From: an uncultured Candidatus Bathyarchaeia archaeon
Lineage (GTDB): Archaea > Thermoproteota > Bathyarchaeia > TCS64
Reading direction: 5' to 3'
Length of the DNA: 64,000 nt
NCBI GenBank assembly: GCA_964589605.1
Contig: CAZPRN010000002.1
Location: forward strand, 45,180-109,179
The translations under genes and the position numbers were made by a program. Of this stretch, positions 20,761 through 60,903 are shown piece after piece. The notes beneath the pieces are model-generated. The model was not told where the DNA came from. It saw only the letters and a list, made by a program, of their open reading frames with translations, and made no database searches. Numbering within the stretch: the first letter of the stretch is position 1; every line of letters begins with the position of its first letter.

Positions 20761-20885
20761 TGGGCTGCCAGCTTTCGCGGTTTCACGAAGCCGAAGACAT
20801 CACTAATGCCGCAAACGGAGCGTGGTTTAACTTCCGAGTTCGGAATGGGTTCGGGTGGGTCCCACGCCCTTTGGCCGGTTACCCA
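20761..20885 (-). rRNA. 5S ribosomal RNA (stand-alone; no 16S/23S in the window)
   Basis: The minus-strand sequence reads UGGGUAACCGGCCAAAGGGCGUGGGACCCACCCGAACCCAUUCCGAACUCGGAAGUUAAACCACGCUCCG...GCUGGCAGCCCA. It contains the universal CCGAAC-UCGGAAGUUAA core. Helix II pairs GGGCGUGG with CCACGCUC. The ends pair as helix I, giving 12 positions with 2 mismatches. Ends are approximate, within a few nt. Confidence 0.85.
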
Positions 20886-25647: not shown

Positions 25648-26976
25648 TCATCCACCTATCAGAACAGTCTCCGGGTAATACGCATACCAGCTGAACCAGT
25701 ATACCTCAAAGTAGGTTACATCTGATTCAGCTGAGGTAACTCTCACAGAGTCTAGAGGCTCATCATATGTTGCGGTGATTGATGTGCCATTTATTTCGAA
25801 GCTTACTTCCTTCTGCTCCATTACATGGTCCTTGACGATGGCAATTGTCTCGTTGTTGTGCTTTATTCCCACGACCTTCGTGAAAAGGTCTAGCCTGCTG
25901 TCTCTCTGTGAGACTGGGAACTGTATCTTCCCTCTTCCTATGTATGTCTGGTAGGGGTCTTCCCTGTAGTCCCTGTAATTCCCTGTGTCAGTTGAGAGGA
26001 CCGTTGCGTTTGGGTATACCTCCTTAACCCTACTCCATGTCGTTGTCAGAAGTGGGAATGTTTCAAGCTCGACACCCTTCCATTTTCCATCAACGGCTAC
26101 TCCAAGTATCTGGGGCCAGTGGCTCTGTGTCTCTCTATCATAGAGGACCAGGTTGCTGTTGAGAAGCCTACCCGATGTACCGAATGTTGTTGTGTTTCCC
26201 CTGAACTGGACGCTATATCCGATTGCAGACTCTGTTAACGGGCAGTACGTTATCGATGCGTTCCTGTCATTGATGTAATCGTTCACGACCTCGTGCCAAA
26301 GCATTATCCGTCTAGGGTACACCCTCGGCGGGTCCGACTCTAGCAGGTACACGATGTCCTTAGGTCCAATATAGTCAGCCTCGTCAAGCGGGATATACAC
26401 GGGGGCTTCTATCGGTGGGATGCTGTCGGGTGTCATCCCGGTGTTGTACACCTCATCCTCGTACCTATTCAGCCACTCTATGTTTGTGTCAACGAGGACA
26501 GGGTAAACCGGTATCTCTACGTATATCGGCTTGAGCTGGCTGACCTCCTTGGAGATAAGACCGGGTACCTTGCCTTCCAAGCCGTAGAAAAAATTCATCC
26601 CAAGCTCTATTGTTCTGACCGGGGACCAGTCCTCGTTTACTCCAATAAAGCCACTGTGGTTTGCGCCTGGGGATATCGTGATTCTTCCCGTTTCCTTGGA
26701 TTCACCTAGCTCGAATCCACCGAAGGTTGATGATATGTACAGGTTGTCGAGTTCTACATCTTTTTCTCCGTGGTTTAGTATCATGTACTCTACCGTGACG
26801 TTGGTGTACTCCCTGAGTCTGGGTGGTCTTTTCGCTATCTGCAGGTAATTATCCGGATAAGTTACGTTGAGTACCCTGAACTCCATATCGGGTTCTGCGA
26901 GACTCATCTGGTCCCAAGTGGCGTACGCTGTAACTAGAACTAGGAGTGTAGTGATGATGGCTATTCCTTTCCTCAC
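25648..26976 (-). CDS. Secreted/anchored DUF3179-domain protein with an N-terminal extra domain
   Basis: N-terminal signal/anchor IAIITTLLVLVTAYA. The C-terminal half has ITYCPLTESAIGY...FGTSGRLLNSNLVLYDRETQSHWPQILG, the DUF3179 hallmark. Confidence 0.7.
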   Translation of the reverse strand: MRKGIAIITTLLVLVTAYATWDQMSLAEPDMEFRVLNVTYPDNYLQIAKRPPRLREYTNVTVEYMILNHGEKDVELDNLYISSTFGGFELGESKETGRITISPGANHSGFIGVNEDWSPVRTIELGMNFFYGLEGKVPGLISKEVSQLKPIYVEIPVYPVLVDTNIEWLNRYEDEVYNTGMTPDSIPPIEAPVYIPLDEADYIGPKDIVYLLESDPPRVYPRRIMLWHEVVNDYINDRNASITYCPLTESAIGYSVQFRGNTTTFGTSGRLLNSNLVLYDRETQSHWPQILGVAVDGKWKGVELETFPLLTTTWSRVKEVYPNATVLSTDTGNYRDYREDPYQTYIGRGKIQFPVSQRDSRLDLFTKVVGIKHNNETIAIVKDHVMEQKEVSFEINGTSITATYDEPLDSVRVTSAESDVTYFEVYWFSWYAYYPETVLIGG

Positions 26977-28110: not shown

Positions 28111-29565
28111 TTACTCTTTTTCCAGTGTTTCCTGGATGGCCTTGAATTGTTCCAGTGCGTCTTCGAGGTTGGCGATGATCTCTGCAGCCAGTACCTCTGG
28201 TTCAGGTAAGTTCTCTAACTCTTCTAGACTGGAGTCCTTGATCCATGTGATGTCTAGGTTGGCCTTGTCTCTCTGGGTGAGTTCCTGGTATGTGTAGGGT
28301 TTGAAGCGTTCTGTCTCGGTTCGCTGGTGTCTGTTCTGGGGGTTATAACATTTGATGAAGTCTTCTAGGTCTTTGTGGGTGAGTGGGTTGGTCTTGAGGG
28401 TGAAGTGTTTGTTGGTTCTGAGGTCGTATATCCATAGGGTTTTGGTCTGGGGGTCCGGTGAGCCGGGTCGGTTGTCGAAGAATAGTATGTTGGCTTTGAC
28501 TCCTTGGGCGTAGAATACTCCTGTTGGTAGTCTAAGTATGGTGTGGCAGTCTGTGTCGTGGAGGAGTCTCTTTCTTATGGTTTCTCCTGCTCCTCCCTCG
28601 AATAGCACGTTGTCTGGGACGACAACGGCTGCTTTTCCCGTGGTTTTGAGTAAGCTTTTGATGTGTTGAAGGAAGTTGAGTTGTTTGTTGCTGGTGGTTG
28701 CCCAGAACTCTGGTCGTTCATAGTCCTGTTTCTCTTTTGCGACGCCGTTTTCGTTGTAAACTGTGACGCTACTTTTTCTCCCGAATGGCGGGTTGGTGAG
28801 TACGTAATCGTAGTAGGTTCCAGGGTGTTTGGCTAGGCTATCGTCTACGGTGATTGGGCTGTGGTCGTTTCCCTCGATTCCGTGAAGGTAGAGGTTCATG
28901 AGGCAGAGCCTTGCTGTGTCTTGCACTATCTCCCAACCGTGGAATGTATCGTGTTTTAGGAAGTCTTTCTGTTCCCTGTCGAGTTCTTTGTCGGAGATGT
29001 GTTTGTGGGCTGCGATGAAGAAGCCACCTGTTCCGACTGCTGGGTCGCAGATTGTTTTCATAGGTTCGGGGTCTATGGCTTCGACCATTGCTTGGATGAG
29101 TGGTCTGGGTGTGAAGTATTGTCCTGCTCCTGATTTGATGTCCTCGGCGTTTTTCTGGAGTAATCCTTCGTAGATTGCTCCTTTTACGTCGATGGGGAGT
29201 CCGTACCATGTTTCCTCGTTGATGAGGGTGATGAGTCTGCGTAGCTTGGCTGGGTCCCTTATCTTGTTGCTGCTTTTCTTGTATATTTCCCCGAGCATTC
29301 CTTTCTTTATTCCTAGCTGGGCGAGGGTTTTTCGGTAATGGGTGTCTAGCTCCATTCCTTCCAGTTTTTCTAGGGTGCTCCAGCTGAATTCTTGGGGTAT
29401 TGTGCTTGGGTTGTTGTATGGTGGCTTGGTTTGTTCGTCAGCCATTTTTAGGAATAGTAGGTAGGTTAACTGCTCGACGTAGTCTCCGTAGCTTACGCCG
29501 TCGTCTCTGAGTACGTCGCAATAATTCCATAGTTTCTGTACTATACTTGCTTCTTCTCCAGCCAT
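28111..29565 (-). CDS. hsdM: Type I restriction-modification system methyltransferase subunit HsdM
   Basis: N-terminal HsdM domain (LWNYCDVLRDDG). Motif I DPAVGTGGF and motif IV NPPFG. Confidence 0.93.
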   Translation of the reverse strand: MAGEEASIVQKLWNYCDVLRDDGVSYGDYVEQLTYLLFLKMADEQTKPPYNNPSTIPQEFSWSTLEKLEGMELDTHYRKTLAQLGIKKGMLGEIYKKSSNKIRDPAKLRRLITLINEETWYGLPIDVKGAIYEGLLQKNAEDIKSGAGQYFTPRPLIQAMVEAIDPEPMKTICDPAVGTGGFFIAAHKHISDKELDREQKDFLKHDTFHGWEIVQDTARLCLMNLYLHGIEGNDHSPITVDDSLAKHPGTYYDYVLTNPPFGRKSSVTVYNENGVAKEKQDYERPEFWATTSNKQLNFLQHIKSLLKTTGKAAVVVPDNVLFEGGAGETIRKRLLHDTDCHTILRLPTGVFYAQGVKANILFFDNRPGSPDPQTKTLWIYDLRTNKHFTLKTNPLTHKDLEDFIKCYNPQNRHQRTETERFKPYTYQELTQRDKANLDITWIKDSSLEELENLPEPEVLAAEIIANLEDALEQFKAIQETLEKE

Positions 29566-30944
29566 TATTTACTCCCCCTCTGAGCCTTAATACGTTCAAG
29601 TAATGCACTTGAAGGTTCATCGTTGGGGTTTTGATGAACAAGACGGCCCTCAAACGCTTTTTTTAGTATGCTTTGTTTGAAAATCGAACACTTAGTCATT
29701 GATTTCGTTATTTCAACCAAGTTTTGATGTATTATTGATAACATAGACTCCAGTGTATCAACGATTATATTCTGTTCTTGAATGGATGGAACTGGAATTT
29801 CATAGGTTATTATATTCTTCTTGCTGATATGTGGCAATTGAGTTCCTGTTTGTTTACCAAGTAAATGTGTAATAAATGAAGGTAGTTGCATAGAATAATA
29901 CAGATAATCCGTAGTAACACGATTATTGGGAATAATCCTTGCCATTCGTTGAACTAATAAGGAGGGTGTATCATTTGACTTGACTTTGGCTAGTTTCAGA
30001 CCCGTGCTAATAATTGGTCTATCCATAGCCAAGATGATGTCATCTTCATTTAGTAGAAGTTTAGAAAATTTATCTAGTTCTGAAAGTGGATAATATTTTG
30101 TATCATCCCATACAAGCTTACCTGGCTGTATGTTTTTTCCTCGTAGTAATTTTATTCCATCTGAACTAAATTTCTCGCTTTTAAACGCGTGACCAACGTC
30201 TATCTGACAGACCTCATGTAATGAAGTTAAAAACCAGTCTTCTGGAACCTCTTTTGAAGTTATCAACGCCTCTTTTCTTGAACCGCTCTGATTCGTTCTC
30301 CATTTTTCTGTTAGTTTTCCTGTGTAGGCTTGTTTTAGGATTGCTAGTCGGTATTGCTCTAGTTGGGTTTGGGAAACTTGGAGGCTTCGTACTCCTGCGT
30401 CCAGTTGGCTGAAAAGCTCCTCAATTCGAGTAACAATACGAACCTGATCCTCAAAAGGAGCTAATGGAAAGTTTAGAGATTCAATATCCCCCCTTTTTAA
30501 ATTATTAATATTCACTCCGCTTGTCCTTTCCATTATTTGTTTTAGATAAAGTGGACTTTGGAAAAAATATCCAAAAAATTCAGGAACTATCAACCCAGAA
30601 GGACGAAGTAACCCACAAAATGCTCCAAAACTCAATTCCTCGTATCCAGTAAATTGAGCAGATTTACCAACTAATCGTTTACTCCCACTTGATGTTGTTA
30701 TTATCACGTCATTTTTTTTAAGAAGTTGGTTTTCTTTGATTTTTACCTTTGGGAGATAGACTAAATCATCTAATGTTATCTTATTTTTTTGAATGTTAGT
30801 AGCCCTTAACACTGGAATGTAATTTTTTTTTATAGACTTTGAAGAATCATTTTTTTTGTACGTAACCCCTCTTAATAATGTAGATAATTCACTTGCTACT
30901 ATCCACATCCATTTTTCTGGTATCTTCGGAGATTTTTTTTCCAT
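29565..30944 (-). CDS. hsdS: Type I R-M specificity subunit HsdS (two TRDs + two conserved helical repeats)
   Basis: Conserved repeats ...LAPFEDQVRIVTRIEELFSQLD...LKQAYTGKL and ...VPSIQEQNIIVDTLESMLS...LKKAFEGRL. There is a 1-nt start/stop overlap with both hsdM and hsdR. The gene is visibly AT-rich. Confidence 0.9.
   Translation of the reverse strand: MEKKSPKIPEKWMWIVASELSTLLRGVTYKKNDSSKSIKKNYIPVLRATNIQKNKITLDDLVYLPKVKIKENQLLKKNDVIITTSSGSKRLVGKSAQFTGYEELSFGAFCGLLRPSGLIVPEFFGYFFQSPLYLKQIMERTSGVNINNLKRGDIESLNFPLAPFEDQVRIVTRIEELFSQLDAGVRSLQVSQTQLEQYRLAILKQAYTGKLTEKWRTNQSGSRKEALITSKEVPEDWFLTSLHEVCQIDVGHAFKSEKFSSDGIKLLRGKNIQPGKLVWDDTKYYPLSELDKFSKLLLNEDDIILAMDRPIISTGLKLAKVKSNDTPSLLVQRMARIIPNNRVTTDYLYYSMQLPSFITHLLGKQTGTQLPHISKKNIITYEIPVPSIQEQNIIVDTLESMLSIIHQNLVEITKSMTKCSIFKQSILKKAFEGRLVHQNPNDEPSSALLERIKAQRGSK
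30712..30940 (-). repeat. Five homopolymeric A tracts (7-9 nt, coding strand) in the first ~230 nt of hsdS
   Basis: Plus-strand T runs counted directly: T8 30712..30719, T7 30784..30790, T9 30823..30831, T8 30850..30857, T8 30933..30940. The last begins at the second codon. Confidence 0.9.
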
Positions 30945-33682
30945 CAGTTGTTTAGCACCATATTAAGTTCGTTCAATATATGATCAATTTCATTTCCAAA
31001 TACTTGGAAAGCATGGTGAAGTCCTCCTTTCTGGTTGAAGGGAACGTTGTCGAAGTCGTCCCGTATTATCTCCACGCTTGTTTTTATCTGGTCTTTAATC
31101 ATCACAAGCCACGCAAGCTGCTCTTCGGTGTAAGCTTTCCCAGACTCCTCCTGTCTCGTCAGCCACTCATTAAACCTCCGATCAACCATGTCCCCGTAAG
31201 GCTCAAGTACCTCTTCCTCATCCAACGCAAAACGAACCAACTGGATAACATCAGCAAACAACCGCTCCACACGAACACCTCTAACCCTATCCCGTTCAAG
31301 CACGTTATACGCCCACCATAACTGCCTCATACCCATCGGAGGCTCCTCCACAGCAGTAGCCAACCTCTTCACAGCATCATAGCTCAGATGCTTAGAACCA
31401 TAAGGCTTGTTATAGAGAATCTGCAAAGCATCCAACTCACTCTGCTTCTCCTCAATCATACGCCTAAAAGCATCAACAAGCCCCTGAGCCTTCTCACGGC
31501 TAGCTGGATCAAACCTAGCCTCAAGCAACTCGTCCCTGCTAACAATGTCGATGGTCTGCTCGTTCTTCCGTTTAACCTCAAGTATAGTGTTCAGCACCTT
31601 CCTGCTTCTGAACAGTTTACACGCCTCATCAGCCAACACATTGTAGGCTTCACCTAGCTGCTCCTCACTTGGCTCCTCGACATCAAACAGCTCCTTTGCC
31701 TTCTCCTCCCTTTTATCAGGGTCAATAGCGTCAAACAAACCTCTGGACATATCGCGTAGGGAAACACCAGTCTCCTCCTCGATAATACTCCGCTCCTCAT
31801 TACTCAGGCGTTTATCCAGACGGGAAAGCCTGTTGCCCAGGCTCATCAAGCTATCAACATCACGGGCTCCACTGGCAACGGCGAAGAAGAGGTGGTCAAA
31901 CTTGATTCCCCTCTTCCTCTCCAGTGGTCTTGAATCCGTTTTATCGCTCTCACATACACCAACCGCATCAACAATAACGAAATGATCTTTGAACTTGGCA
32001 TCAGGAGTAACCCCCTCCAGTGCGTCACCATCAATGGTTCTCGTTCCCCTGCCTTTCATCTGTTCAAAATACACACGGCTCTTCACATCCCTCATGAAAA
32101 GCAGACACTCAACAGGCTTGATGTCCGTCCCGGTGCTAATCATATCCACCGAAACAACAATCCTCGGGTAATACCTGTTCCTGAAATCCTGAAGAAGCGT
32201 ATCCGGTTTAACGCCAGTAGTCTTGTATGTTATCTTCTGGCAGAACTCGTTACCACGCCCAAACTCCTCACGAACAATATGGAGTATATCCTCGGCGTGG
32301 CTGTCATTCTTGGCGAAAATAATCGTCTTTGGTACATGCTCCCTGTCAGGGAATATCTCTGGAAGCCTATCTCTGAACGCCTTAACCACTGTACGTATCT
32401 GGTCCTCAGCAACAACACTACGGTCCAGCTGGGTTCTCTCGTACTCCAGCATCTCGTCAAGCTCCTCCCAGCGACGCTTTCGGGTCAACTTGTCACGCTT
32501 ATCAACGATCTCCCCAGCCTCAACTTCGCTACCATCCTCGGTTATCCTTGTCTTTATCCTGTAAACATCATAACCGACGTTCACCCCATCCGCGACGGCA
32601 CGTTCATGGTTGTACTCCATCACCAGGTTCTGGTTGAAAAAAGCATACGTATGACTACTAGGAGTCGCAGTCAACCCAATGATGAATGCATCAAAGTACT
32701 CCAGCACCTGCCTCCAGAGATTGTAGATACTACGGTGACACTCATCAGTAATAATGAAATCAAAGGTCTCAATCGGGATATGCTCGTTATACTCTACCAG
32801 TAACTCGGACTCAGCCTCAGGTTCCACATGCCACATCGAGTCCTCCTCAATCTCCTCATCCAGCTCCGTACCCTTCAACATCGAGTACATACGCTGGATC
32901 GTACTCACCACAACCTTCGCAGGCTTATCCAGCTTATTGGATCGCAAATGCTGAGAAATATACAGCTCGGGGAACTTACGCCCATCATCCGGGTTCCTAT
33001 ACCCATCAAACTCCCCCTTCGCCTGTTTACCCAGATTATTCCTGTCAACAAGGAACAGGATACGCTTGGCCTTGGCGTGCTTGATCAACCTGTACGCCTC
33101 GGTAACCATGGTGAACGTCTTACCCGAACCCGTAGCCATCTGAATCAAAGCCCTTGGACGGTTACCAGCAAGACTCTGCTCCAGATTGGTTATAGCCTCG
33201 ACTTGGCAACTCCTGAGCCCTTCCACCTTCAACTTCGGCATCTCGCGGAGCCTACCCCTCAAAGTTGAATCTTCCTCGATCCACTCCCTCAATGTCTCAG
33301 GGCGATGGAATGAATACACACGCCTGCTCCGGCTATCCGGATCGCGCAAGTCTCTGAAGAACGTCTCAACCCCTGTGCTCTCATAACAATAAGGTATAGG
33401 ATCAACCCACATTCTCACATAGCCGGGCAGCCCCGTCGTGTACTTCACTGTCTGGACACTGACTCCACCAAGTGTCGTACCTTCCGGCTTCGCCTAAACA
33501 ACACCAATCGCCTTACCGTCAAGGAAAAGCAAGTAATCCGCGGCATCCCTGCCTACGCTGAACTCACGAATAGCGAAGCTATCCTTGGAAAAATCAACCT
33601 TATCATAATCAAAGACGCTCCAGCCACACGCCTCAAGCATCTTATCGATATTCTTTCTGGCCTTCGCCTCGGGACCCGTCAC
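30944..33682 (-). pseudogene. hsdR: Type I restriction subunit HsdR (EcoEI/EcoAI-like) interrupted by one in-frame TAG
   Basis: The 62-aa N-terminal ORF ends ...AADYLLFLDGKAIGVV, followed by TAG at 33494..33496. The same frame continues AKPEGTTLGGVSVQT into the 834-aa ORF. That ORF has QMATGSGKT, ITDECH and an EcoEI-R-type C-terminus. The TAG sits where the Glu of vvEAK (PD-ExK nuclease) is expected. Confidence 0.85.
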
Positions 33683-35384: not shown

Positions 35385-35945
35385 ATGGTAGAGGAAATCA
35401 GGCTACACGGCATGGGTGGACAGGGAGTAGTCGCTTGCGGTGAGCTAATCGCCATAGCGGCGAGCTTCGAGGACAAGTTCTGCAGGGCGTTCCCCATGTA
35501 TGGTAGCGCGAGGCGTGGAGCCCCTGTACTTGCCTTCGCACAGATTGGAGACGAGAGCGAGGCAACCCGCTCCATGATTTATTACCCCGAGTACCTCATG
35601 GTTCTGGACCCTTTGATGCCTGAGCAGATGGAGATCACCCAGGGGCTCAAAGACAATGGAGTCATCGTTTTCAACACTGTGAAGACCCCTGAAGAGGCTA
35701 ACGAGATATTCAAGAAGGACCTTCGAACCATGGCGGTGATTGATGCCACGGGTATCGCCGTTGAGACTATCGGTAGACCCATCCCCAACACTGTGATGCT
35801 TGGTGCATTCGCCAAAGCGACCGGGCTCCTCAAATTGGAGAGCATATTCAAGGCAATCGACAAACGGTTCCCCGAAAGGCTAGCCGAGGGCAACAAGAAG
35901 GCAGCCCGGGCTGGGTTCGACAGGGTCGAAGTAATGGAGTCTTGA
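35385..35945 (+). CDS. 2-oxoacid:ferredoxin oxidoreductase gamma-subunit-family protein (PorG-like), stand-alone
   Basis: IRLHGMGGQGVVACGELIA is the GxGGQG motif of the POR/KOR gamma family. No alpha/beta/delta subunit genes are adjacent. Confidence 0.8.
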   Translation: MVEEIRLHGMGGQGVVACGELIAIAASFEDKFCRAFPMYGSARRGAPVLAFAQIGDESEATRSMIYYPEYLMVLDPLMPEQMEITQGLKDNGVIVFNTVKTPEEANEIFKKDLRTMAVIDATGIAVETIGRPIPNTVMLGAFAKATGLLKLESIFKAIDKRFPERLAEGNKKAARAGFDRVEVMES

Positions 35946-36077
35946 GATTATTTGGCGCAGGACGAGTGCCTGTGGAGATCAACCTGAAGCTGGACGAGTA
36001 GGGCAAGCTCCCATGGTACTAAACCCATTTTAACAACTCTTTTACACCTCAATAACCCTTGAATCTTGGTGTAGATT

Positions 36078-36275
36078 TTGTCGCAGGTAAATCTGTCCCC
36101 AGCGGAGCAAAGGGTCTACGAGATGGTCAGCCAAGGAGATGTCATGTGCAGGCAGCTGACGCCGAGGGAGAGCGGTGCAGTGCCCGGCCTAGTCCAGAAG
36201 GGCTTGGTTGAGGTGTACAAGAAGGATGTCTCGCCATACAGGGTCAAGAAGATCAAGTATATCCGCAAGGTCTAA
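36078..36275 (+). CDS. Small putative winged-helix protein (65 aa)
   Basis: LSPAEQRVYEMVSQG...PGLVQKGLVEVYKK resembles a minimal wHTH. It has a TTG start and weak support. Confidence 0.35.
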   Translation: MSQVNLSPAEQRVYEMVSQGDVMCRQLTPRESGAVPGLVQKGLVEVYKKDVSPYRVKKIKYIRKV

Positions 36276-36369: not shown

Positions 36370-37938
36370 ATGACTTATGATATCCTCATCGAGAAAGGGA
36401 AGGTAATCGATGGCACCGGAAACGTCTGGTACGAGGCGGATGTAGCCATCGAGAAGGGAAGGATCGCCGCCATTGGTCGAGACCTTGGAAAAGCAGAAAG
36501 GGTGATAGACGCCTCTGGACACATCGTCTCACCGGGTTTTATCGACATCCACAGCCACAGCGACCTACCGGTGCTCATCGACCCCATGGCACACAGCAAG
36601 ATCAGACAGGGAGTCACAACAGAGGTGATCGGGCAGTGCGGCAACTCCGCCGCTCCCATGTATGAATCACTCAGAGAGTACAGGGAGACCTACTCGCGGA
36701 ACATGGTTCCGGATGATTTCGAGCTAAACTGGACAGATATGGCGAGTTACCTCAAGCTTCTGGATGAAAAGGGAATAGCGTTGAACATTGCCGCTGTCGT
36801 TGGGCATGGAACAGTTAGGGCAAATGTTCTTGGGCACGAGAACCGTGACCCATCGGACTCGGAACTAGTGGAGATGAAGAAACATGTGAGAGACGCGATG
36901 GAACAGGGAGCCTTTGGTATGAGCACCGGGCTGATCTACCCCCCCAGCGTTTATGGGAAGCAGGAGGAGATCACTGAGCTTGCCAAGGTCGTCGCCGAGT
37001 ATGATGGAGTCTATTATAGCCACATCAGGGGTGAGGGTGACACCCTCCTCGACGCGGTTGTCGAGGCATGTGAGATCGGAAGGGACAGCGGTACCCCTGT
37101 TCAGATCGCTCACTTCAAGGCAAGCGGTCAGCCCAACTGGGGTAAGGTAAAGGACAGTCTAGCCCTTGTCGAGAAGTATAGGGGCATGGGCGTCGAGGTG
37201 ACCTTTGACCAGTACCCGTACATAGCCTCCAGTACTGGACTGACAGCTTTGCTCCCCCACTGGGTTCACGAGGGTGGAGCGGAGAAGATGCTTGAACGCC
37301 TCAAAGACCCGGAAACGCTTGAGAAGATCAAGACCAATCTCAGGCTCAACTATGGCTGGGACCGAATCCTAGTTACCAACGCAAAGAATCATCCCCAGTA
37401 TAACGGTAAACACATCCAGGAGATAGCCGGAATGATGAGCAAGGAGCCTTTCGATGCTTACGTGGAGCTTCTGATAATCGAGAACACACAGGTTCCCAGC
37501 GTCATGTTCGGGATGACCGAGGACGATGTCAGGCTCGTGATGCAGAGCCCATACGGGATGGTGGGTAGTGACGGCTCAGCCATCAGCCCAACGGGCATAT
37601 GGGAGCACAGCGTACCCCACCCGAGACTATACGGGACCTTCCCGAGGGTCCTCGGGCACTATGTCAGGGAGGGGGTCATTAGTCTGCCAGAGGCAGTTAG
37701 GAAGATGACTGGTGCACCTGCACAGAAACTTGGTTTCAAGGACCGAGGCTTGCTCAGAGAGGGCTATGTCGCGGACGTTACCGTGTTTGATCCCGATAAA
37801 ATCGAGGATGTGGCAACGTTCACTGATCCTCAGCGATACGCCGCTGGTGTCCCCTACGTGATTGTAAACGGGGAACTGGTCATAGATGCGGGGGAACACA
37901 CGGGCAAGCTGCCCGGTACGGCGTTAAGAAGGGTTTAG
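36370..37938 (+). CDS. N-acyl-D-amino-acid deacylase (D-aminoacylase) family amidohydrolase
   Basis: PGFIDIHSHSD, IYPPS, YYSHIRGEG and VQIAHFK blocks typical of D-aminoacylases. Confidence 0.85.
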   Translation: MTYDILIEKGKVIDGTGNVWYEADVAIEKGRIAAIGRDLGKAERVIDASGHIVSPGFIDIHSHSDLPVLIDPMAHSKIRQGVTTEVIGQCGNSAAPMYESLREYRETYSRNMVPDDFELNWTDMASYLKLLDEKGIALNIAAVVGHGTVRANVLGHENRDPSDSELVEMKKHVRDAMEQGAFGMSTGLIYPPSVYGKQEEITELAKVVAEYDGVYYSHIRGEGDTLLDAVVEACEIGRDSGTPVQIAHFKASGQPNWGKVKDSLALVEKYRGMGVEVTFDQYPYIASSTGLTALLPHWVHEGGAEKMLERLKDPETLEKIKTNLRLNYGWDRILVTNAKNHPQYNGKHIQEIAGMMSKEPFDAYVELLIIENTQVPSVMFGMTEDDVRLVMQSPYGMVGSDGSAISPTGIWEHSVPHPRLYGTFPRVLGHYVREGVISLPEAVRKMTGAPAQKLGFKDRGLLREGYVADVTVFDPDKIEDVATFTDPQRYAAGVPYVIVNGELVIDAGEHTGKLPGTALRRV

Positions 37939-39828
37939 ACTCTCTTCCAGCTGTTTCAGGGTGGTCGCCTCTTTTTCGGTGGCGATCTTTTTCTTTCTAT
38001 CCTTTGGTATCGAGTCACCAGCGATTGATTTGAGCTTGTCACTCATCCATACGACCCTCTCGTATCCGCCATCCGCTTGAAGGAATTTACTGCTACTCAG
38101 GTACTGGGTTGCGAAAGTGGCGAAGCCGTCGGTGTTCTGGTAGCCTGCAACATTGTTAGCCAGCCTGGTCCATGTCCAGCCTCCGGGTGCCTCTCCTATG
38201 TACCCCCTGTCCATGAGCCCGATTCCATCCAGCTCAGGTATGTAATACGCGATGTTCTGGAAACAGCTACAAGCAGTGTGGGGGTGCCCGAAGATGCTGT
38301 GCATGTAAACCCGGCTGACCCTGCCGTTCGTTCTTAATCTTGTTGCCTCGTTGACCCCACTGTACTCTCCCCTGACTGGGTCCAGCAGCTCGCCTTTCTC
38401 GATAATTGTGCTCTTGTTGTAGACATCACCCGGTGCGAGTAGCGCCTGTGCTTTGAGGACCCACCATGGGCTGCTTCCACACTGGGAGGGTCTTTCAGGT
38501 GAAACCGTGCAAGCGTGGCTCAGACTGAAACTGGCACACCTCATACACCCGTAAAACTCGTCAACGTTCTCATCGGTTGCCTCATCGATCCTGTTCTTCC
38601 GAACCGCTTTGTATTCCCTGATCTGTTCACCTAGCGCATCGACCTCGTTTTTGTCGAGGATGACCTTGATGCCAATGGGTCCTATCTCTGGGAACTTGTT
38701 TCTGAGCTCAACCCGTATCACCTTACTTAGGTGCTCAAGCTTGAAGCCCGAGTCTAGCGCTTTCTGGGTCACCTTCAGTGACTCGACGGAGCCGCCAACG
38801 AGGTTCACTTGGACTCCCCGGATGTACTTGATGACACGTAACAAGGTGCCCTCGACTCCCACCGTGACGATGTCATCTACCGCTGGGTTTCCAAGCTCGA
38901 CGAGTATCGAGAAATCACTTGGGTTAGACTCTTCTCCAATTACGGTTATTCCATTGTTTGAGATGTTGTGGTTAGGTACAACAACTACAAAGCTGTTCTC
39001 TGAACCTTTGACTTCCAGTGATGGGTTATCTATTTTCTCTCGACTGAAGACTGGTCCAACCTCGATGGGTACATCCGGTACTGCCTTCTCAACGAGCCTT
39101 GCCCGAACATTTGGGAGCTTCCAGGCAGTGGAAACCATATCCTCGATGCTCTGCTCCTCGTAGACCATCCCGACTAGGTCCTGACTACCACCAAGTATCA
39201 CCGATGGGACACCCAGGGCTAGGAGTGATTGAGCCATCAGTCTCTCGAACCCCGTTAACTCTCCGGCTACAAACATTACTCCCGGGGCGTTCTCCTCTAT
39301 CTCGTGGGTTATAGCGTGGCTTGAGCCAGCGTCTGCCCGGGCATAAATCAACGCGTACCTCGCCATCAACTGCCCAAAGTACACGACTCCTGTGTCCCTA
39401 TCCCCAAGGTCTACTTGAGCCGCTTCCCCCAGTATCCCACTGGAACGACCAGCAGCGTATACCTTGAACCTCTTTGACTGAAGCTTGGAGGCTAATGGGA
39501 CTAGGTTGTCACCTCCACCGAGGAGCAAGGCCCATGCATTAGTGCCTTCGTTAAGCCCTAAGCAGTTAGACCTGAACCTGTCATCAGAGATGAACTTCTC
39601 GGAGTGATCCGGGTAACCTGACTCTACTTGCTCTGCTAGCCAGAGCGCGTCAAGGAAGTGTCCTCCTTTCTCGTCCTTTATCCTCGCCAAAGCGCCGTCA
39701 ATCATCTCTTGGGTGGCGGTCATCTCGCCCGTCAAACCGTAGAGGATGGGAAACCTGAACTCTGTGCCCTCGTATTCTTCGGGGCTAGTCAAATGTTTCT
39801 TGAAAAAACTGTAAGCCATCTCACCCAT
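37924..39828 (-). CDS. Acetyl-CoA synthase (AcsB/CdhC-family, bacterial-type length) homologue, orphan
   Basis: The C-terminal half aligns by eye with Moorella AcsB. FYGCMRCASFSLSHACTVSPERPSQCGSSPWW matches FYSCVLCQSFAPNHVCIVTPERVGLCGAVSWL, the four [4Fe-4S] Cys. HTACSCFQ matches MTSCGCFE, the Ni-binding Cys-Gly-Cys (here Cys-Ser-Cys). SSKFLQADGGYERVVWMSDKLK matches SKKFISADGGIARIVWMPKSLK. Confidence 0.75.
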   Translation of the reverse strand: MGEMAYSFFKKHLTSPEEYEGTEFRFPILYGLTGEMTATQEMIDGALARIKDEKGGHFLDALWLAEQVESGYPDHSEKFISDDRFRSNCLGLNEGTNAWALLLGGGDNLVPLASKLQSKRFKVYAAGRSSGILGEAAQVDLGDRDTGVVYFGQLMARYALIYARADAGSSHAITHEIEENAPGVMFVAGELTGFERLMAQSLLALGVPSVILGGSQDLVGMVYEEQSIEDMVSTAWKLPNVRARLVEKAVPDVPIEVGPVFSREKIDNPSLEVKGSENSFVVVVPNHNISNNGITVIGEESNPSDFSILVELGNPAVDDIVTVGVEGTLLRVIKYIRGVQVNLVGGSVESLKVTQKALDSGFKLEHLSKVIRVELRNKFPEIGPIGIKVILDKNEVDALGEQIREYKAVRKNRIDEATDENVDEFYGCMRCASFSLSHACTVSPERPSQCGSSPWWVLKAQALLAPGDVYNKSTIIEKGELLDPVRGEYSGVNEATRLRTNGRVSRVYMHSIFGHPHTACSCFQNIAYYIPELDGIGLMDRGYIGEAPGGWTWTRLANNVAGYQNTDGFATFATQYLSSSKFLQADGGYERVVWMSDKLKSIAGDSIPKDRKKKIATEKEATTLKQLEESLNPS

Positions 39829-39880
39829 TCTGGGTCACCTTAACTCGGTGACAAGGTGGACGGCGGGTAATAAATGGAGG

Positions 39881-40339
39881 CTACCGGAGGTTGTGGATCA
39901 TCCGGAAGTCTTCTTTCACCGTGTTCAGGACCACGTGGGTGTTTGTTCGCTCCACGTACTCCATCGCCAGCAGGTCCTTGGGGAACTCGCTGAGCTCACG
40001 TCTGTTCCTGAACTTTGCGATCACGATGCTGTCAATGGCACCGGTAACATCGTAGACTGCGCACACGTATGGCAGCTTGGCGATCTCTCCTTGGGTCTCC
40101 AAGAGCTTGCCCCTGTTCACGGTGACAGTCATGATTACGGTTAACTCAAAGCCCAGTCTCTCAAAGTCAACGATGACCGAGTAGTCGGTGATAACCCCTG
40201 CTGATTCTAGTCGCTGGACATGGTTGATTACCGTTGCAGCTGAGACGCCTATCGCCTTCGCCAGCTCCCTGTTGCTCCGGTTGGAGTTGATTAGCAACTC
40301 GGCTAGGAGTTTTCTATCCATCTCGTCTAAAGCGAACAT
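39881..40339 (-). CDS. lrp: Lrp/AsnC-family transcriptional regulator
   Basis: LDEMDRKLLAELLINSNRSNRELAKAIGVSAATVINHVQRLESAGVI HTH plus a C-terminal RAM/AsnC_trans_reg domain. Confidence 0.9.
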   Translation of the reverse strand: MFALDEMDRKLLAELLINSNRSNRELAKAIGVSAATVINHVQRLESAGVITDYSVIVDFERLGFELTVIMTVTVNRGKLLETQGEIAKLPYVCAVYDVTGAIDSIVIAKFRNRRELSEFPKDLLAMEYVERTNTHVVLNTVKEDFRMIHNLR

Positions 40340-40630: not shown

Positions 40631-42013
40631 ATGGTTTCAAGTGTCTTGACCAACGGGGGATCCGTTGAGTACATAATGGAGAAGATAGGTAAACACGACA
40701 TCAAGTACATACGGCTGATCGTTATTGACCCACATGGCAGCCCGAGAGCAATGCTAATCCCAGAGTATCAAGTCAGGGACTCGCTGGAGAACGGCATCGC
40801 CTTCGACGGCAGCAGCATACCCGGTTTCGCCGATGTCAACCAGAGCGACCTAAACCTCCACCCGGATCCATCCACGTTCTTGGTCCCCATGTGGGAGATA
40901 CCGGGAATCGCGTTGATGTTCTGCTATGTCAGCAACCCCAATGGCACGCCCTTCGAGGGAGACCCAAGGGGGCACTTGAAAAGAACTGTGGACGAGTTTG
41001 AGAAGAAGGGATTCGGGTTCAACACTGGACCAGAGTTGGAGTACTTCTACGTCACCAACGAGAATGGAACAGTAACCCCCTATGGAAGTGGTGGATACTT
41101 CGATCTACCCCCCTTGGACCCAACAGAGGAGGTCAAGCTTGAGACTTTGATGTGCCTTGAGGCAGCTGGTTTCCAGCTTGACAGAGTTCACCACGAGGCA
41201 GCTTCAGGCCAACAAGAGATTAACTTCAGGTACAGTGACGCGTTGAAGACCGCAGACAAAGTAATTCTCTACAAGTTAGCAGTCAAGACCATCGCTCAGA
41301 AGCACGGTACAACCGCCACCTTCATGCCCAAGCCTTTCTGGGGTATCAACGGAAGCGGCTGCCATGTGCACCAAAGTATCGTGGACCTTGACACGAGCAA
41401 GAACATATTCAGCGATCCAGACACTGAGTACGGTCTAAGCGAGACCGCTATCCACTATATTGGAGGGGTGCTAAAATACGCGCCCGCCATGTCCATGATA
41501 GTTGCCCCTCTAGTCAACAGCTACAAGAGGCTTGTACCTCACTATGAGGCACCCGTCTATGTGAGCTGGGGCTACGCTAACCGTAGTGCGCTTATCAGGG
41601 TTCCACTTGCACCAGGCGACAAGAACAGCGTCACAAGGGTCGAGTACAGGCACCCTGACCCTTCAGCCAACCCTTACCTGGTTGCCACTGTGTTGCTGAA
41701 ATCAGGTATCGAGGGGATGGAGAAGAAGATCCAGCCTAGCGATCCACTGGTGGAGAACATCTACGAGCTCACACCCGAGGAGATGGAGGAGAAGGGCGTC
41801 GGGTACATGCCAGAGCACCTAGGTGACGCGGTTGATACCTTTGAGTCGGATATGACTATGAAGGAGGCCGTTGGCACTTTCCTGCACAAGAACCTGGTGG
41901 AGCTAAAGAGGAAAGAGTTCGCCAGCTACATGGACTTTACAGGTGTTGAGTGGGCTGCAAGTAGGCCGACTATCACCAAGTGGGAGTACGAGCGTTACCT
42001 TACCCGCTGCTAA
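40631..42013 (+). CDS. glnA: Glutamine synthetase, type I
   Basis: FDGSSIPGF, FMPKPF, NGSGCHVHQS, NSYKRLVP..EAP and RHPDPSANPYL blocks. An alternative start is the ATG at 40676. Confidence 0.95.
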   Translation: MVSSVLTNGGSVEYIMEKIGKHDIKYIRLIVIDPHGSPRAMLIPEYQVRDSLENGIAFDGSSIPGFADVNQSDLNLHPDPSTFLVPMWEIPGIALMFCYVSNPNGTPFEGDPRGHLKRTVDEFEKKGFGFNTGPELEYFYVTNENGTVTPYGSGGYFDLPPLDPTEEVKLETLMCLEAAGFQLDRVHHEAASGQQEINFRYSDALKTADKVILYKLAVKTIAQKHGTTATFMPKPFWGINGSGCHVHQSIVDLDTSKNIFSDPDTEYGLSETAIHYIGGVLKYAPAMSMIVAPLVNSYKRLVPHYEAPVYVSWGYANRSALIRVPLAPGDKNSVTRVEYRHPDPSANPYLVATVLLKSGIEGMEKKIQPSDPLVENIYELTPEEMEEKGVGYMPEHLGDAVDTFESDMTMKEAVGTFLHKNLVELKRKEFASYMDFTGVEWAASRPTITKWEYERYLTRC

Positions 42014-57645: not shown

Positions 57646-58575
57646 CTATGTGAACTCTGGGGCAACCTTATCCATGAACAGCTCCGCTTCTTCTTTCCAC
57701 CCAGGTCCAAGGAAACTCAGGATAATCATACCCGCCCCAGCGTCAGCGTACTCGTAGATACGCTGCACCATCTCCTCCGGGTCACCAATCAAGCCCCCAT
57801 CCATATCAGAGTTGAAATTCTTGAAGTAGTCAACCGCCTTCCCTTTTGCCCCTTCACTTGTTTTATCGATGAATGTGAAAGCGGGCCAACTCTTCAATAT
57901 CTCACCTGGGTCACGGTCAATCCTGTGGCAATGAGCCTCCAAGACCTTTGTTTTCTTCCGGAAATCATCTGGAGTCCCCCTCCAGAGGGCGTAGTTAGCC
58001 ATATCGCCGTACCTTGCACAAGTTTTCAGGGTACGTTTCTCGCCCTCACCGGCAATCATCAACGGGATTCCTCCCTCTTGAACTGGTTTAGGGCTGTTGT
58101 AAGCCTCGTCAATAGAGTAATGTTTCCCGTTGTAACTAGGCTTCTCCTCGATCAACATCTTCTTGATGATGATAGCAGCCTCCTCAAGCTGGTCACTCCT
58201 GCTTTTTCGAGTCCCAAACTCGTAGCCATAAGACTTGAACTCCCTTTCATGCCACCCAGCACCAATACTCAGAATCGCCCTACCACCTGAAACAGCGTCA
58301 AGGGTCGCACCCATCTTCGCCAACAAAGCTGGGTTCCTGAAAGGGACTGCTAATGTAAGATGTCCAAGCCTTACATTGGTTGTCTTCACAGCTAAGGCTG
58401 TCAAAGCGGTCCAGCTCTCGTACCTTGGAGCACCAAGCTCAGTGTACATCCCCAGCAAGTGGTCGCTCAACCATATACTGTCATATCCAAGCCCATCAAC
58501 CACCATCGCACGCTCCTCAAGAACCCTGTACTCCGGTACTTCTGGGCTCAGAAAAACCCCGAAATCCATCTTCAT
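57646..58575 (-). CDS. Luciferase-like (LLM class) flavin/F420-dependent oxidoreductase
   Basis: LGYDSIWLSDHL, GGRAILSIGAGW.ERE and the TIM-barrel LLM layout. Confidence 0.85.
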   Translation of the reverse strand: MKMDFGVFLSPEVPEYRVLEERAMVVDGLGYDSIWLSDHLLGMYTELGAPRYESWTALTALAVKTTNVRLGHLTLAVPFRNPALLAKMGATLDAVSGGRAILSIGAGWHEREFKSYGYEFGTRKSRSDQLEEAAIIIKKMLIEEKPSYNGKHYSIDEAYNSPKPVQEGGIPLMIAGEGEKRTLKTCARYGDMANYALWRGTPDDFRKKTKVLEAHCHRIDRDPGEILKSWPAFTFIDKTSEGAKGKAVDYFKNFNSDMDGGLIGDPEEMVQRIYEYADAGAGMIILSFLGPGWKEEAELFMDKVAPEFT

Positions 58576-59686: not shown

Positions 59687-60220
59687 ATGACCGAGGAAAA
59701 GTACGACAAACTCAGAGCATCCTTCCTAGAGGTCCTAGAAGACCTAGTTAGGTTCAGAGGAACCGAGCCAATGGTCGCAAGAATCTATGCACTGGTCGTA
59801 CTATCCCCGAAACCCCTTACCCAGGAAGAAATCTCAACAAAGACCGGGTACTCACGCTCACAGATCTCCCGATACCTCTCCAACCTTGAACAGCGAGGAA
59901 TGATAAGAAAGGAATCCGTTCCCGGGTCTAGAACCCAGCTCTACGGTGGTGGAGCAAAGCCATTCTTTGAGAACTTTAGAAGAGGGATTGACATCTCAGA
60001 GAGGTTTGTTAAGGGAAAAGTCAGGGACATCGAAAACATCCTAACCGAATACGAAAACTTGTCACCCGAAGAAAGGGAAACCCCGGAAGCCCAACGTCTC
60101 AAAGAAGTGGTAACCGTATTCAATGCATGGTTCCTGAGCTACCTAGAACTCATGACCGAGTTCAACACACGGTTCAACGAGAAAATGGACGAGCTAGAGC
60201 GGAAACTTTTCCCATTATAA
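59687..60220 (+). CDS. GbsR/MarR-like winged-helix transcriptional regulator
   Basis: VARIYALVVLSPKPLTQEEISTKTGYSRSQISRYLSNLEQRGMIRKE. Confidence 0.6.
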   Translation: MTEEKYDKLRASFLEVLEDLVRFRGTEPMVARIYALVVLSPKPLTQEEISTKTGYSRSQISRYLSNLEQRGMIRKESVPGSRTQLYGGGAKPFFENFRRGIDISERFVKGKVRDIENILTEYENLSPEERETPEAQRLKEVVTVFNAWFLSYLELMTEFNTRFNEKMDELERKLFPL

Positions 60221-60267
60221 ACTATCATCTAACAAACTTCATTATACACCAGTCGGACGCAGTAGCC

Positions 60268-60903
60268 ATGAAGGCTATTGGACTCAGCAGCAGTGGAAGG
60301 AAAGGATCATACTCCAGAAGGATAGTCAAGGACATCCTCGACGCATCAGGAGTAGAATACGAACTCATTGACCTCGCACCACTCAACATCAAGGGCTGCT
60401 TAGGCTGCCTCCAGTGCGCAAAAGACAACATATGCGTCCAGAAAGACGACTTCCAAGCCGTAGTGGACAAGGTAACAGAGGCAGACGCCCTTGTCTTCGG
60501 CGGAGCCAACTACTATGACAACCTCAACGCCATCGGGCACGCGTTCTGGGAGCGAACCTTCGCCCTAAGACACCGGGAAGCGTTCATCTGGGCAGGCAAA
60601 CTAGCGGTCGCGGTCGGCTGCAACCGGGACCCTGAGACGAGACACGCCACAGCATTCATCGAGCAGATGATGAACAGCAACAAGATGGCAGTAATCGAAA
60701 CCTTCAGCGACTCCGGACACCAGCAGTGCTACGACTGCGGCTACGGCCACGATTGTGCAGTAGGCAACGTGTACAAACACATGGGGCTTGTCACAGCGGA
60801 GTACGCCGAGGAGAACCGCCCCGAGGAATACTGCCAAGAGGCACAGGACCGAGCCAAAGCCATAGGGAAAACACTTGGAAGCATATTAAAGGCAAGAACC
60901 TAG
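60268..60903 (+). CDS. Iron-sulfur flavoprotein / NADPH-dependent FMN reductase-like protein
   Basis: MKAIGLSSSGRKGSYS is a flavodoxin-like start. The compact Cys motif CLGCLQCAKDNIC (CxxCxxCx5C) is typical of Isf proteins. The ATG at 60268 is preferred over the overlapping upstream extension. Confidence 0.7.
   Translation: MKAIGLSSSGRKGSYSRRIVKDILDASGVEYELIDLAPLNIKGCLGCLQCAKDNICVQKDDFQAVVDKVTEADALVFGGANYYDNLNAIGHAFWERTFALRHREAFIWAGKLAVAVGCNRDPETRHATAFIEQMMNSNKMAVIETFSDSGHQQCYDCGYGHDCAVGNVYKHMGLVTAEYAEENRPEEYCQEAQDRAKAIGKTLGSILKART

Follow-up and report, generated by a model that had tools for sequence, protein, structure and literature searches.

The A-cluster of acetyl-coenzyme A (acetyl-CoA) synthase (ACS) is among the few organometallic catalysts of biology and is considered to be ancient. 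To our knowledge, it is so far known from a single reaction and is always coupled to carbon monoxide dehydrogenase (CODH) and a corrinoid protein. Bacterial ACS, or AcsB (Moorella thermoacetica, Carboxydothermus hydrogenoformans, and Clostridium autoethanogenum; 1oao, 7zkj, and 6ytt), is built of the domains A1, A2, and A3, whereas archaeal CdhC (Methanosarcina thermophila, 9c0s and 9c0t; Bathyarchaeial proteins P0042-P0048) lacks the A1 domain and has its gene in the cdhABCDE cluster. The monomeric ACS of C. hydrogenoformans (1ru3, 7nyp) is a three-domain enzyme that works without bound CODH, and its gene lies in an acs cluster. In addition, Dehalococcoides mccartyi reportedly has an ACS without CODH, within an incomplete Wood-Ljungdahl pathway, that is thought to cleave acetyl-CoA. 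Here we describe an ACS-like gene in a stretch of 64,000 nucleotides (contig CAZPRN010000002.1, positions 45,180 to 109,179, assembly GCA_964589605.1) from an uncultured Candidatus Bathyarchaeia archaeon; this whole stretch is referred to below as the window. With confidence that we would put at about even, we suggest that its product is a repurposed A-cluster-type Ni/Fe-S enzyme that would work without CODH and CoA, and not a canonical or dislocated ACS. The gene and its domains are:

37924..39828, minus strand: ACS-like gene, 634 aa, ATG start, domains A1-A2-A3 (open reading frame [ORF] call, Pfam, NCBIfam, PDB sequence matches, AlphaFold and Foldseek)
39079..39828, minus strand: A1 domain, N-terminal, Rossmann/'prismane'-like, aa 1-250 (profile alignment, Foldseek match to 6yua_A)
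38629..39078, minus strand: A2 domain, aa 251-400 (Pfam CdhC, 26.2 bits; alignment)
37924..38628, minus strand: A3 domain, which carries the A-cluster ligands, aa 401-634 (PF19436, 177.9 bits)

The 634-aa ORF is an ACS homologue with the A1-A2-A3 architecture of AcsB. Its membership of the ACS family, which an earlier sequence-only reading of the window had proposed, is borne out by profile searches, by matches to solved structures, and by structure prediction. The ORF matches the Pfam family PF19436 (ACS_CODH_B_C) with 177.9 bits (cutoff 25, E 3e-52), and its match to PF03598 (CdhC), which covers A2, only just clears the cutoff of 24 with 26.2 bits (E 8e-6). The best solved relative is Methanosarcina CdhC (9c0s_E, E 8e-62), with bacterial ACS at about 1e-49, and the NCBIfam equivalog cutoffs are missed both for cdhC (TIGR00316, 297.9 < 355.95) and for the AcsB type (NF040764, 285.2 < 800; NF007078, 297.6 < 809). 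An AlphaFold model with a predicted local distance difference test score (pLDDT) of 85.4 matches entire bacterial ACS chains in Foldseek (E ~2e-41), with the monomeric C. hydrogenoformans enzyme as the top structural match; further matches are the isolated A1 domain 6yua_A (E 2e-12, TM 0.69) and, for the A2-A3 core of the model, Methanosarcina CdhC (9c0t_E, TM 0.80).

Compared with bacterial AcsB, the protein aligns nearly end to end, positions 8-623 of a 23-member family profile corresponding to residues 25-671 of C. autoethanogenum ACS, although the identity is only ~22-24% and ~25-50 N-terminal residues of bacterial AcsB are missing from its A1 domain. For the A2-A3 core, archaeal CdhC is the best match in sequence (31-38% identity), and the CdhC-type C-terminal 'IATEK' stretch is present as well. 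The description of the gene as bacterial-type is therefore right for its architecture, since it has a true A1 domain, but not for its lineage, which is a third clade outside both canonical AcsB and canonical CdhC.

The residues that hold the A-cluster are found in two short segments of A3:

38479..38547, minus strand: CMRCASFSLSHACTVSPERPSQC, with the four [4Fe-4S] cysteines C428, C431, C440, and C450 and the gate residue Phe434 (Moorella F512)
38263..38271, minus strand: Cys520-Ser521-Cys522 (HTACSCFQ), which replaces the Ni-binding Cys595-Gly596-Cys597

It had been noticed from the letters of the window alone that all four cubane cysteines are present and that serine takes the place of glycine in the Ni-binding tripeptide, and both observations extend to the whole family. 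The cubane cysteines (GCMRC..HAC..QCG) follow the pattern C-x2-C-x8-C-x9-C, with the 3/9/10 spacing of bacterial ACS, and map together with Phe434 to C506, C509, C518, C528, and F512 of the Moorella enzyme; all five residues are invariant in the family. The two Ni-bridging cysteines (C520 and C522), shared with bacterial AcsB, are invariant too, whereas the middle Gly of Cys-Gly-Cys, which CdhC also keeps, is not retained: Ser521 occurs in 38/38 full-length family members, and every one of them has PHT[AS]CSCF along with the cubane motif. Judging from these conserved ligands, from which its metal content is predicted, the protein would still build an A-cluster-like centre, in which C428, C431, C440, and C450 would hold the [4Fe-4S] cube, the proximal Ni would sit on C431, C520, and C522, and the distal Ni would be bound by the thiolates of C520 and C522 and by the backbone amides of S521 and C522.

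A Cys-Ser-Cys motif is known from nitrile hydratase, where a single metal ion is bound by two thiolates and two backbone amide nitrogens of the tripeptide. A serine in the middle position is thus compatible with N2S2 coordination of the distal Ni, and by this analogy Ser521 should still give its backbone amide to that ion. The likeness is one of chemistry and not of homology, as nitrile hydratase has an unrelated fold, Fe(III) or Co(III), and oxidised cysteines.

While the metal ligands are kept, two other parts of the active site differ from canonical ACS. The first is the hydrophobic pocket for CO, to which two segments of A1 contribute:

39532..39594, minus strand: conserved A1 motif FISDDRFRSNCLGLNEGTNAW, with C89, L90, and N93 at the Moorella alcove positions G145, I146, and V149
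39343..39345, minus strand: codon of Y162, the equivalent of alcove Phe229 (Moorella) and an invariant Tyr in the family

In Moorella ACS, the xenon/CO alcove consists of G145, I146, V149, F229, and F512, and the exchange F229A alone lowers the CO affinity of the enzyme by at least 30-fold (PMC11321310). We mapped residues through a hidden Markov model (HMM) alignment and an independent MAFFT L-INS-i alignment, which gave the same result; the Cys ligands fixed the numbering (the chain index is one below the Moorella number). By these alignments, the alcove of the ACS-like protein is made up of C89, L90, N93, Y162, and F434, with only F512 and the aliphatic character of the I146 position kept. 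Four of these residues (C89, N93, Y162, and F434) show no variation among the family members compared (23/23), whereas canonical AcsB has G, I/L/V, V, and F at the G145, I146, V149, and F229 positions. The position of the tunnel-lining A222 is Leu or Met in the family; A265 varies even among canonical AcsB and was not used as evidence. The mapping of the C. hydrogenoformans tunnel variants A225L, F231A, and A268M, taken from PDB titles, was dropped, their numbering being inconsistent with the printed chains. The CO alcove is accordingly a place where the family and AcsB part ways: it is predicted to be re-lined with the invariant residues Cys89, Asn93, and Tyr162, and a pocket of such polarity points to a ligand other than tunnel-delivered CO.

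The second difference concerns CoA. The A2 domain of C. autoethanogenum ACS binds CoA, with Trp405 stacked on the adenine, and Arg383 and His386 of this enzyme have been proposed to aid acetyl transfer (preprint 10.1101/2024.08.05.606187). The positions of Arg383, His386, and Trp405 correspond to G327, L330, and S350 of the ACS-like protein; they are variable across the family and across the whole clade of stand-alone proteins described below, and the canonical residues are absent from them. The motif ERxxH..W.R, present in CdhC as ERRxH..W.R, was found in 119/122 canonical Bathyarchaeial CdhC proteins and in 0/38 family members. The protein thus appears, on alignment, to be devoid of the A2 Arg, His, and Trp that bind CoA and assist acetyl transfer. 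The columns that are invariant within the family number 57/234 in A3, 35/250 in A1, and only 8/150 in A2, the least conserved domain; together with the loss of the CoA residues, these counts indicate that the metal module and the A1 'lid' are strongly constrained and that the CoA module is not. The suggestion that the change of tripeptide might mark a diverged metallocentre holds up in this wider form, by alignment, with the CoA and acetyl-transfer residues of A2 gone and the CO alcove altered.

These two differences bear most directly on the main rival explanation, namely that the protein is a genuine stand-alone acetyl-CoA synthase/decarbonylase, which would either make acetyl-CoA from free CO and a methyl-corrinoid or cleave acetyl-CoA for C1 units with release of CO, its corrinoid protein being encoded elsewhere. 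The conservation of all six A-cluster cysteines and of the gate Phe434 would be expected of such an enzyme, as would a fold that matches monomeric ACS (7nyp_A, 1ru3). However, the monomeric C. hydrogenoformans enzyme has the canonical CGC tripeptide, the CoA residues, and the hydrophobic alcove. In the family, Arg383, His386, and Trp405 are missing, A2 is the domain under least constraint, and the alcove is no longer hydrophobic, where the effect of F229A (PMC11321310) shows how much may hang on a single residue, although the change here is from Phe to Tyr. Taking this together with the gene contexts given below, we consider this explanation unlikely, and the reaction of the ACS-like protein, as read from these residues, probably differs from acetyl-CoA synthesis.

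To place the protein among its relatives, we used the results of a large protein search, which returned ~40 clusters of proteins of ~630 aa with 47-73% identity to it and gave 38 full-length members; canonical Bathyarchaeial CdhC (467 aa) followed with 33-38% identity over 60% of the query. Among 1.84 billion representatives, searched exhaustively with a profile, 604 relatives were found. The close relatives are from Bathyarchaeota/Bathyarchaeia wherever their source is named. Named members are called 'hypothetical protein' at NCBI, in keeping with the sub-threshold NCBIfam scores, and 'acetyl-CoA decarbonylase/synthase subunit beta' at the Joint Genome Institute (JGI). A neighbour-joining (NJ) tree built from the A2-A3 core supports the Bathyarchaeial family with 97% bootstrap (100% with P0050) and groups it with three-domain proteins of 610-650 aa from Chloroflexota and Coriobacteriia; this stand-alone clade is separated from all canonical CdhC and AcsB with 99% NJ bootstrap. 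Within it, the Ni tripeptide is Cys-Gly-Cys or Cys-Ser-Cys, or the Ni cysteines are lacking altogether. The comparison shows a Bathyarchaeia-wide family with an invariant Cys-Ser-Cys, lying inside a larger, uncharacterised clade of stand-alone ACS-like proteins. Our search of the literature for a description of the family, for Cys-Ser-Cys in ACS, and for water-column Bathyarchaeia without Wood-Ljungdahl genes gave nothing specific, save for a July 2026 preprint in which a three-domain AcsB-type ACS in Bathyarchaeota is reported from structural phylogeny (bioRxiv 10.64898/2026.07.07.736967); the passages of it that were searched make no mention of Cys-Ser-Cys, loss of CoA residues, a remodelled alcove, or a stand-alone context.

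The position of this clade speaks against the view that the gene encodes a dislocated canonical ACS (beta) subunit of CODH/ACS (the acetyl-CoA decarbonylase/synthase complex, ACDS), with the other genes elsewhere in the genome. This view draws on the fact that cdhABCDE clusters are common in Bathyarchaeia, but those canonical clusters already have a cdhC of their own, to which the protein shows the low and partial identity given above. Moreover, it has an A1 domain, absent from archaeal ACDS subunits, it has lost the catalytic A2 residues, and it stands alone in all 37 non-redundant gene contexts that we collected and in bacterial relatives as well. As clade and architecture both differ, the A2 residues are gone, and the gene always stands by itself, a displaced canonical subunit is very unlikely and, among the explanations weighed here, barely credible.

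The diversity of the clade also raises the opposite view, in which the protein would be a decayed or non-catalytic Fe-S (or Ni/Fe-S) protein serving electron transfer, sensing, or regulation. Six proteins of the stand-alone clade (P0085, P0088, P0101, P0112, P0173, and P0192) have kept the four cubane cysteines and lost both Ni-binding cysteines (e.g., SAL or SAE in their place), and thus the scaffold can persist without a Ni site; the loss of the CoA-site residues and the frequent redox-protein neighbours would fit as well. In the family itself, however, the three domains are all full length, and the Ni ligands, Ser521, Phe434, and the pocket residues of A1 are invariant across members that are only 47% identical, which argues for a selected active site and makes a non-catalytic role quite improbable. 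For the same reasons, full length and invariant ligand and pocket residues at this level of divergence, the gene is neither a chance ORF nor a pseudogene. Degenerate Ni motifs were also seen in many other metagenomic ACS homologues.

We then compared gene neighbourhoods, using 61 loci that fall into 37 groups at 93% identity and whose neighbouring genes were clustered. None of these 37 non-redundant contexts has CODH, the corrinoid iron-sulfur protein (CFeSP), or CooC within reach of any copy of the gene. Likewise, tblastn gave no Cdh or CooC match in the window or in 34 related loci, and none was found in the Pfam-annotated contexts. The absence of CODH and corrinoid partners beside the gene, first noticed in the window, is therefore a property of the family, which is orphan at the level of the locus. 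Bacterial AcsB is, by comparison, accompanied by CODH, CFeSP, and methyltransferase genes. The Dehalococcoides ACS is said to be, likewise, an ACS homologue without CODH that is used for something other than autotrophic acetyl-CoA synthesis, but acsCD reportedly accompany its acsB, whereas the family described here has neither a linked CFeSP gene nor the CoA residues; the lack of a nearby CFeSP gene in any context weighs further against a stand-alone synthase/decarbonylase.

Small flavoproteins and Fe-S proteins are the only theme of these contexts that crosses lineages. FMN_red genes are neighbours in five groups across Bathyarchaeia and Chloroflexi; Fer4_16 and FMN_red genes adjoin the Chloroflexi copies, another bacterial copy has Fer4_16 nearby, and a Coriobacteriia copy has a nitroreductase gene upstream. 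In a second subclade, the upstream order is an MTH1675/AF0103-like gene, a small ORF, and FMN_red. This conserved upstream pair (L012, 8941..9849; also L013, L025, L032, and L042) encodes a 189-aa homologue of MTH1675/AF0103 (PDB 1t57, 1vp8) and a 110-aa protein related to PDB 2fb6, and FMN_red follows the pair in 4/5 loci (not in L012). At locus L026, a flavodoxin gene lies 22 nt upstream of the ACS-like gene. Neighbours of this kind would fit a need of the putative Ni centre for low-potential reduction. The metagenome-assembled genome CAZLHX01 of a Bathyarchaeia member has two Cys-Ser-Cys copies, that of L026 after the flavodoxin and that of L031 after genes for YjeF_N and a FAD-binding protein. 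The window has an FMN_red-family gene of its own at 60127..60903 (plus strand), 43% identical to the FMN_red partner of other Bathyarchaeia, at a distance of 20 kb from the ACS-like gene.

Some contexts contain methyltransferase-type genes, which count in favour of the stand-alone synthase/decarbonylase. Two independent subclades have, directly next to the ACS-like gene, a full-length gene of the MtmB family (PF05369) that is free of in-frame stops:

L014/L015 (5263..6651 in L014): MtmB-family gene
L017-L019 (7834..9273 in L017): MtmB-family gene

The MtmB genes of the two subclades are 24-25% identical to each other, and a URO-D/MtaA-like gene and a S-adenosylmethionine (SAM) methyltransferase gene, as well as a MetE-like gene, are found nearby. 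At locus L048, DUF1786 lies upstream and a gene for a B12-binding radical SAM protein is close by. The MtmB neighbours may hint at a methyl donor, a hint that would suit a synthase drawing on a methyl-corrinoid. Other contexts have YjeF_N, MgtE, or HGD-D as neighbours. In three groups of one subclade (L044, L045, and L053), the ACS-like gene is directly followed, on the same strand, by a gene for a divalent-cation transporter of the MgtE family (407 aa), a neighbour that may have to do with the supply of metal. A DUF3179 gene lies directly 3' of the Chloroflexi ACS-like gene in L029 (12687..14024) and another is present in the window (25648..26976, minus strand), 11 kb from the ACS-like gene; this co-occurrence may be a coincidence.

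From these observations, we propose how a repurposed A-cluster enzyme might work. The ACS-like protein would be a CODH-independent Ni/Fe-S enzyme, whose Ni centre would probably be activated through reduction by a flavoprotein or a ferredoxin-type partner. A1 would close over the proximal Ni with the gate Phe434 retained, giving a more polar pocket, and there the Ni would act, perhaps in methyl or carbonyl chemistry, on a substrate or acceptor other than CO from CODH and CoA. More tentatively, and as something that we consider possible rather than probable, the whole stand-alone clade may be a new class of Ni/Fe-S enzymes that uses the A-cluster scaffold, independently of CODH, CFeSP, and CoA, to catalyse another reaction in a polar Ni pocket of Cys, Asn, and Tyr, with electrons from flavoproteins or ferredoxins; examples would be the transfer of a methyl or carbonyl group to an acceptor other than CoA, or the activation of another small molecule.

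Several points weigh against a repurposed enzyme. The mappings of the alcove and of the CoA site were made on alignments at ~20-25% identity, and the phylogeny is a distance-based, unrooted NJ tree. The neighbours are heterogeneous, and no single partner is kept across the family. The retention of all A-cluster ligands and of Phe512 would also fit ordinary ACS chemistry with a CoA site built of other residues. Furthermore, many Bathyarchaeia have full cdh clusters, and the protein could still work with CODH and CFeSP encoded elsewhere. On this last point, two indirect comparisons count neither for nor against: one of the matches of a canonical CdhC (P0047) with the ACS-like members gave no coincidence of source among the 120 matches listed, and one of NCBI accession blocks found none shared between the ACS-like proteins (MBT series) and ten canonical CdhC proteins.

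If the A-cluster has been repurposed, the consequences reach beyond this locus. A conserved, widespread, stand-alone family that keeps the metal ligands without the CoA site and the CO pocket suggests a second use of the scaffold, and a single polypeptide of 634 aa is a tractable target for new Ni chemistry. In addition, inferences of the Wood-Ljungdahl pathway or of acetogenesis from metagenomes of Bathyarchaeia and Chloroflexota can be inflated by such ACS-like genes, given the synthase label that they carry at JGI.

The genes around the ACS-like gene in the window are:

39881..40339, minus strand: lrp/asnC regulator, 152 aa (Pfam, NCBIfam, PDB relatives)
39829..39880, minus strand: spacer of 52 nt between lrp and the ACS-like gene, with an AT-rich box (TTTATTA) ~40 nt ahead of the ATG and a Shine-Dalgarno-like element (GGTGA)
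40631..42013, plus strand: glnA (glutamine synthetase), separated by 291 nt from lrp, from which it diverges (Pfam Gln-synt_C, E 6e-112)
36370..37938, plus strand: D-aminoacylase-type amidohydrolase, 522 aa, convergent, the last 15 nt being shared with the ACS-like gene (a neighbour only)

This layout agrees in its ORF coordinates with the one first described, in which the ACS-like gene follows lrp by 52 nt on the same strand, glnA is divergent, and the aminoacylase gene converges on it with a 15-nt overlap. The label of the aminoacylase is sound, as the protein matches solved D-aminoacylases with an E of 4e-88. An alignment of five relatives showed that the spacer is mostly kept within the lrp-linked subclade, and this conservation, with the AT-rich box and the GGTGA element, raises the possibility that the ACS-like gene may have its own promoter within these 52 nt. 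The spacer also contains a perfect palindrome (GTCACC-N7-GGTGAC) that overlaps the Shine-Dalgarno-like element and is not kept in the four relatives aligned.

The glnA, lrp, D-aminoacylase, and aminotransferase neighbours had suggested a role in nitrogen or amino-acid metabolism, and we therefore weighed the explanation that the protein is an Lrp-controlled enzyme of such a pathway. The gene does lie close behind lrp on the same strand, with a spacer conserved in eight 93%-identity groups, and aminotransferase and MR_MLE racemase-family genes are found near one or two distant members. However, the set of lrp (47-56 nt upstream), glnA, and convergent aminoacylase is confined to these eight groups, which make up a single subclade (67-100% identity). 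Synteny within this subclade extends across the full ±5 kb and takes in DUF401, a response regulator, thioredoxin, and TrmB. The linkage is absent in members of ≤57% identity, which have quite different neighbours, and in the bacterial relatives, and for this reason the proximity of lrp is best seen as ordinary synteny. The aminoacylase, being convergent, is not co-transcribed with the ACS-like gene. In Halobacterium and Haloferax, lrp lies beside glnA in the opposite orientation, and Lrp activates glnA in Halobacterium (PMC2894021, PMC8229911), so that lrp and glnA form a known unit of their own; the best NCBIfam match of the Lrp of the window is a haloarchaeal Lrp model, below its cutoff. 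Most likely, then, lrp serves the divergent glnA and lies next to the ACS-like gene through local synteny only, and control of a nitrogen-metabolism enzyme by Lrp is a highly doubtful explanation. As for the sequence-only reading, its proposal of a function other than the canonical one stands on the loss of the CoA residues, the remodelled alcove, and the missing partners, whereas the nitrogen and amino-acid neighbourhood on which it had been based does not recur outside one syntenic subclade.

Finally, a Pfam scan of all window ORFs of at least 150 aa showed the window to be archaeal and anaerobic. The genes found include primase, GINS, eIF2-alpha, FEN1, an ATP-dependent ligase, and SRP54, together with an anaerobic ribonucleotide reductase, a branched-chain amino-acid ABC transporter, peptidases, amidohydrolases, and aminotransferases. 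Within the same set of ORFs, no CODH, CdhD/E, CooC, or C1-carrier enzyme was detected, and tblastn with CooC and CdhA/B/D/E from the canonical Bathyarchaeial cluster L035 had zero matches in the window, in agreement with the earlier remark that no Wood-Ljungdahl gene occurs in the 64 kb. A luciferase-like ORF (57646..58575) was considered as Mer and rejected (78.6 bits against a cutoff of 348.7). We also considered and rejected the idea that L035, where a canonical cdh cluster has DUF401 and GNAT as neighbours, comes from close kin of the window organism, since its DUF401 protein is only 32% identical.

Upstream of the aminoacylase gene, the window encodes the gamma subunit alone of a pyruvate/2-oxoacid:ferredoxin oxidoreductase (35385..35945), an orphan PorC that is followed by a small ORF (36075..36251). 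The genes for the delta (Fer4) and fused alpha/beta subunits of the oxidoreductase are present at the equivalent place in the relatives L005-L010 and are missing from the whole window. The window also has a single 5S rRNA gene (20763..20882, minus strand; Rfam, 63 bits), with no other rRNA gene and no tRNA gene in the 64 kb. Lastly, a type I restriction-modification system is encoded at 28111..33448 (hsdM, 28111..29565; hsdS, 29565..30944; hsdR, 30944..33448); as it coincides with a dip in GC content to 0.42-0.46 and with strong changes of skew, this region is probably a horizontally acquired island.

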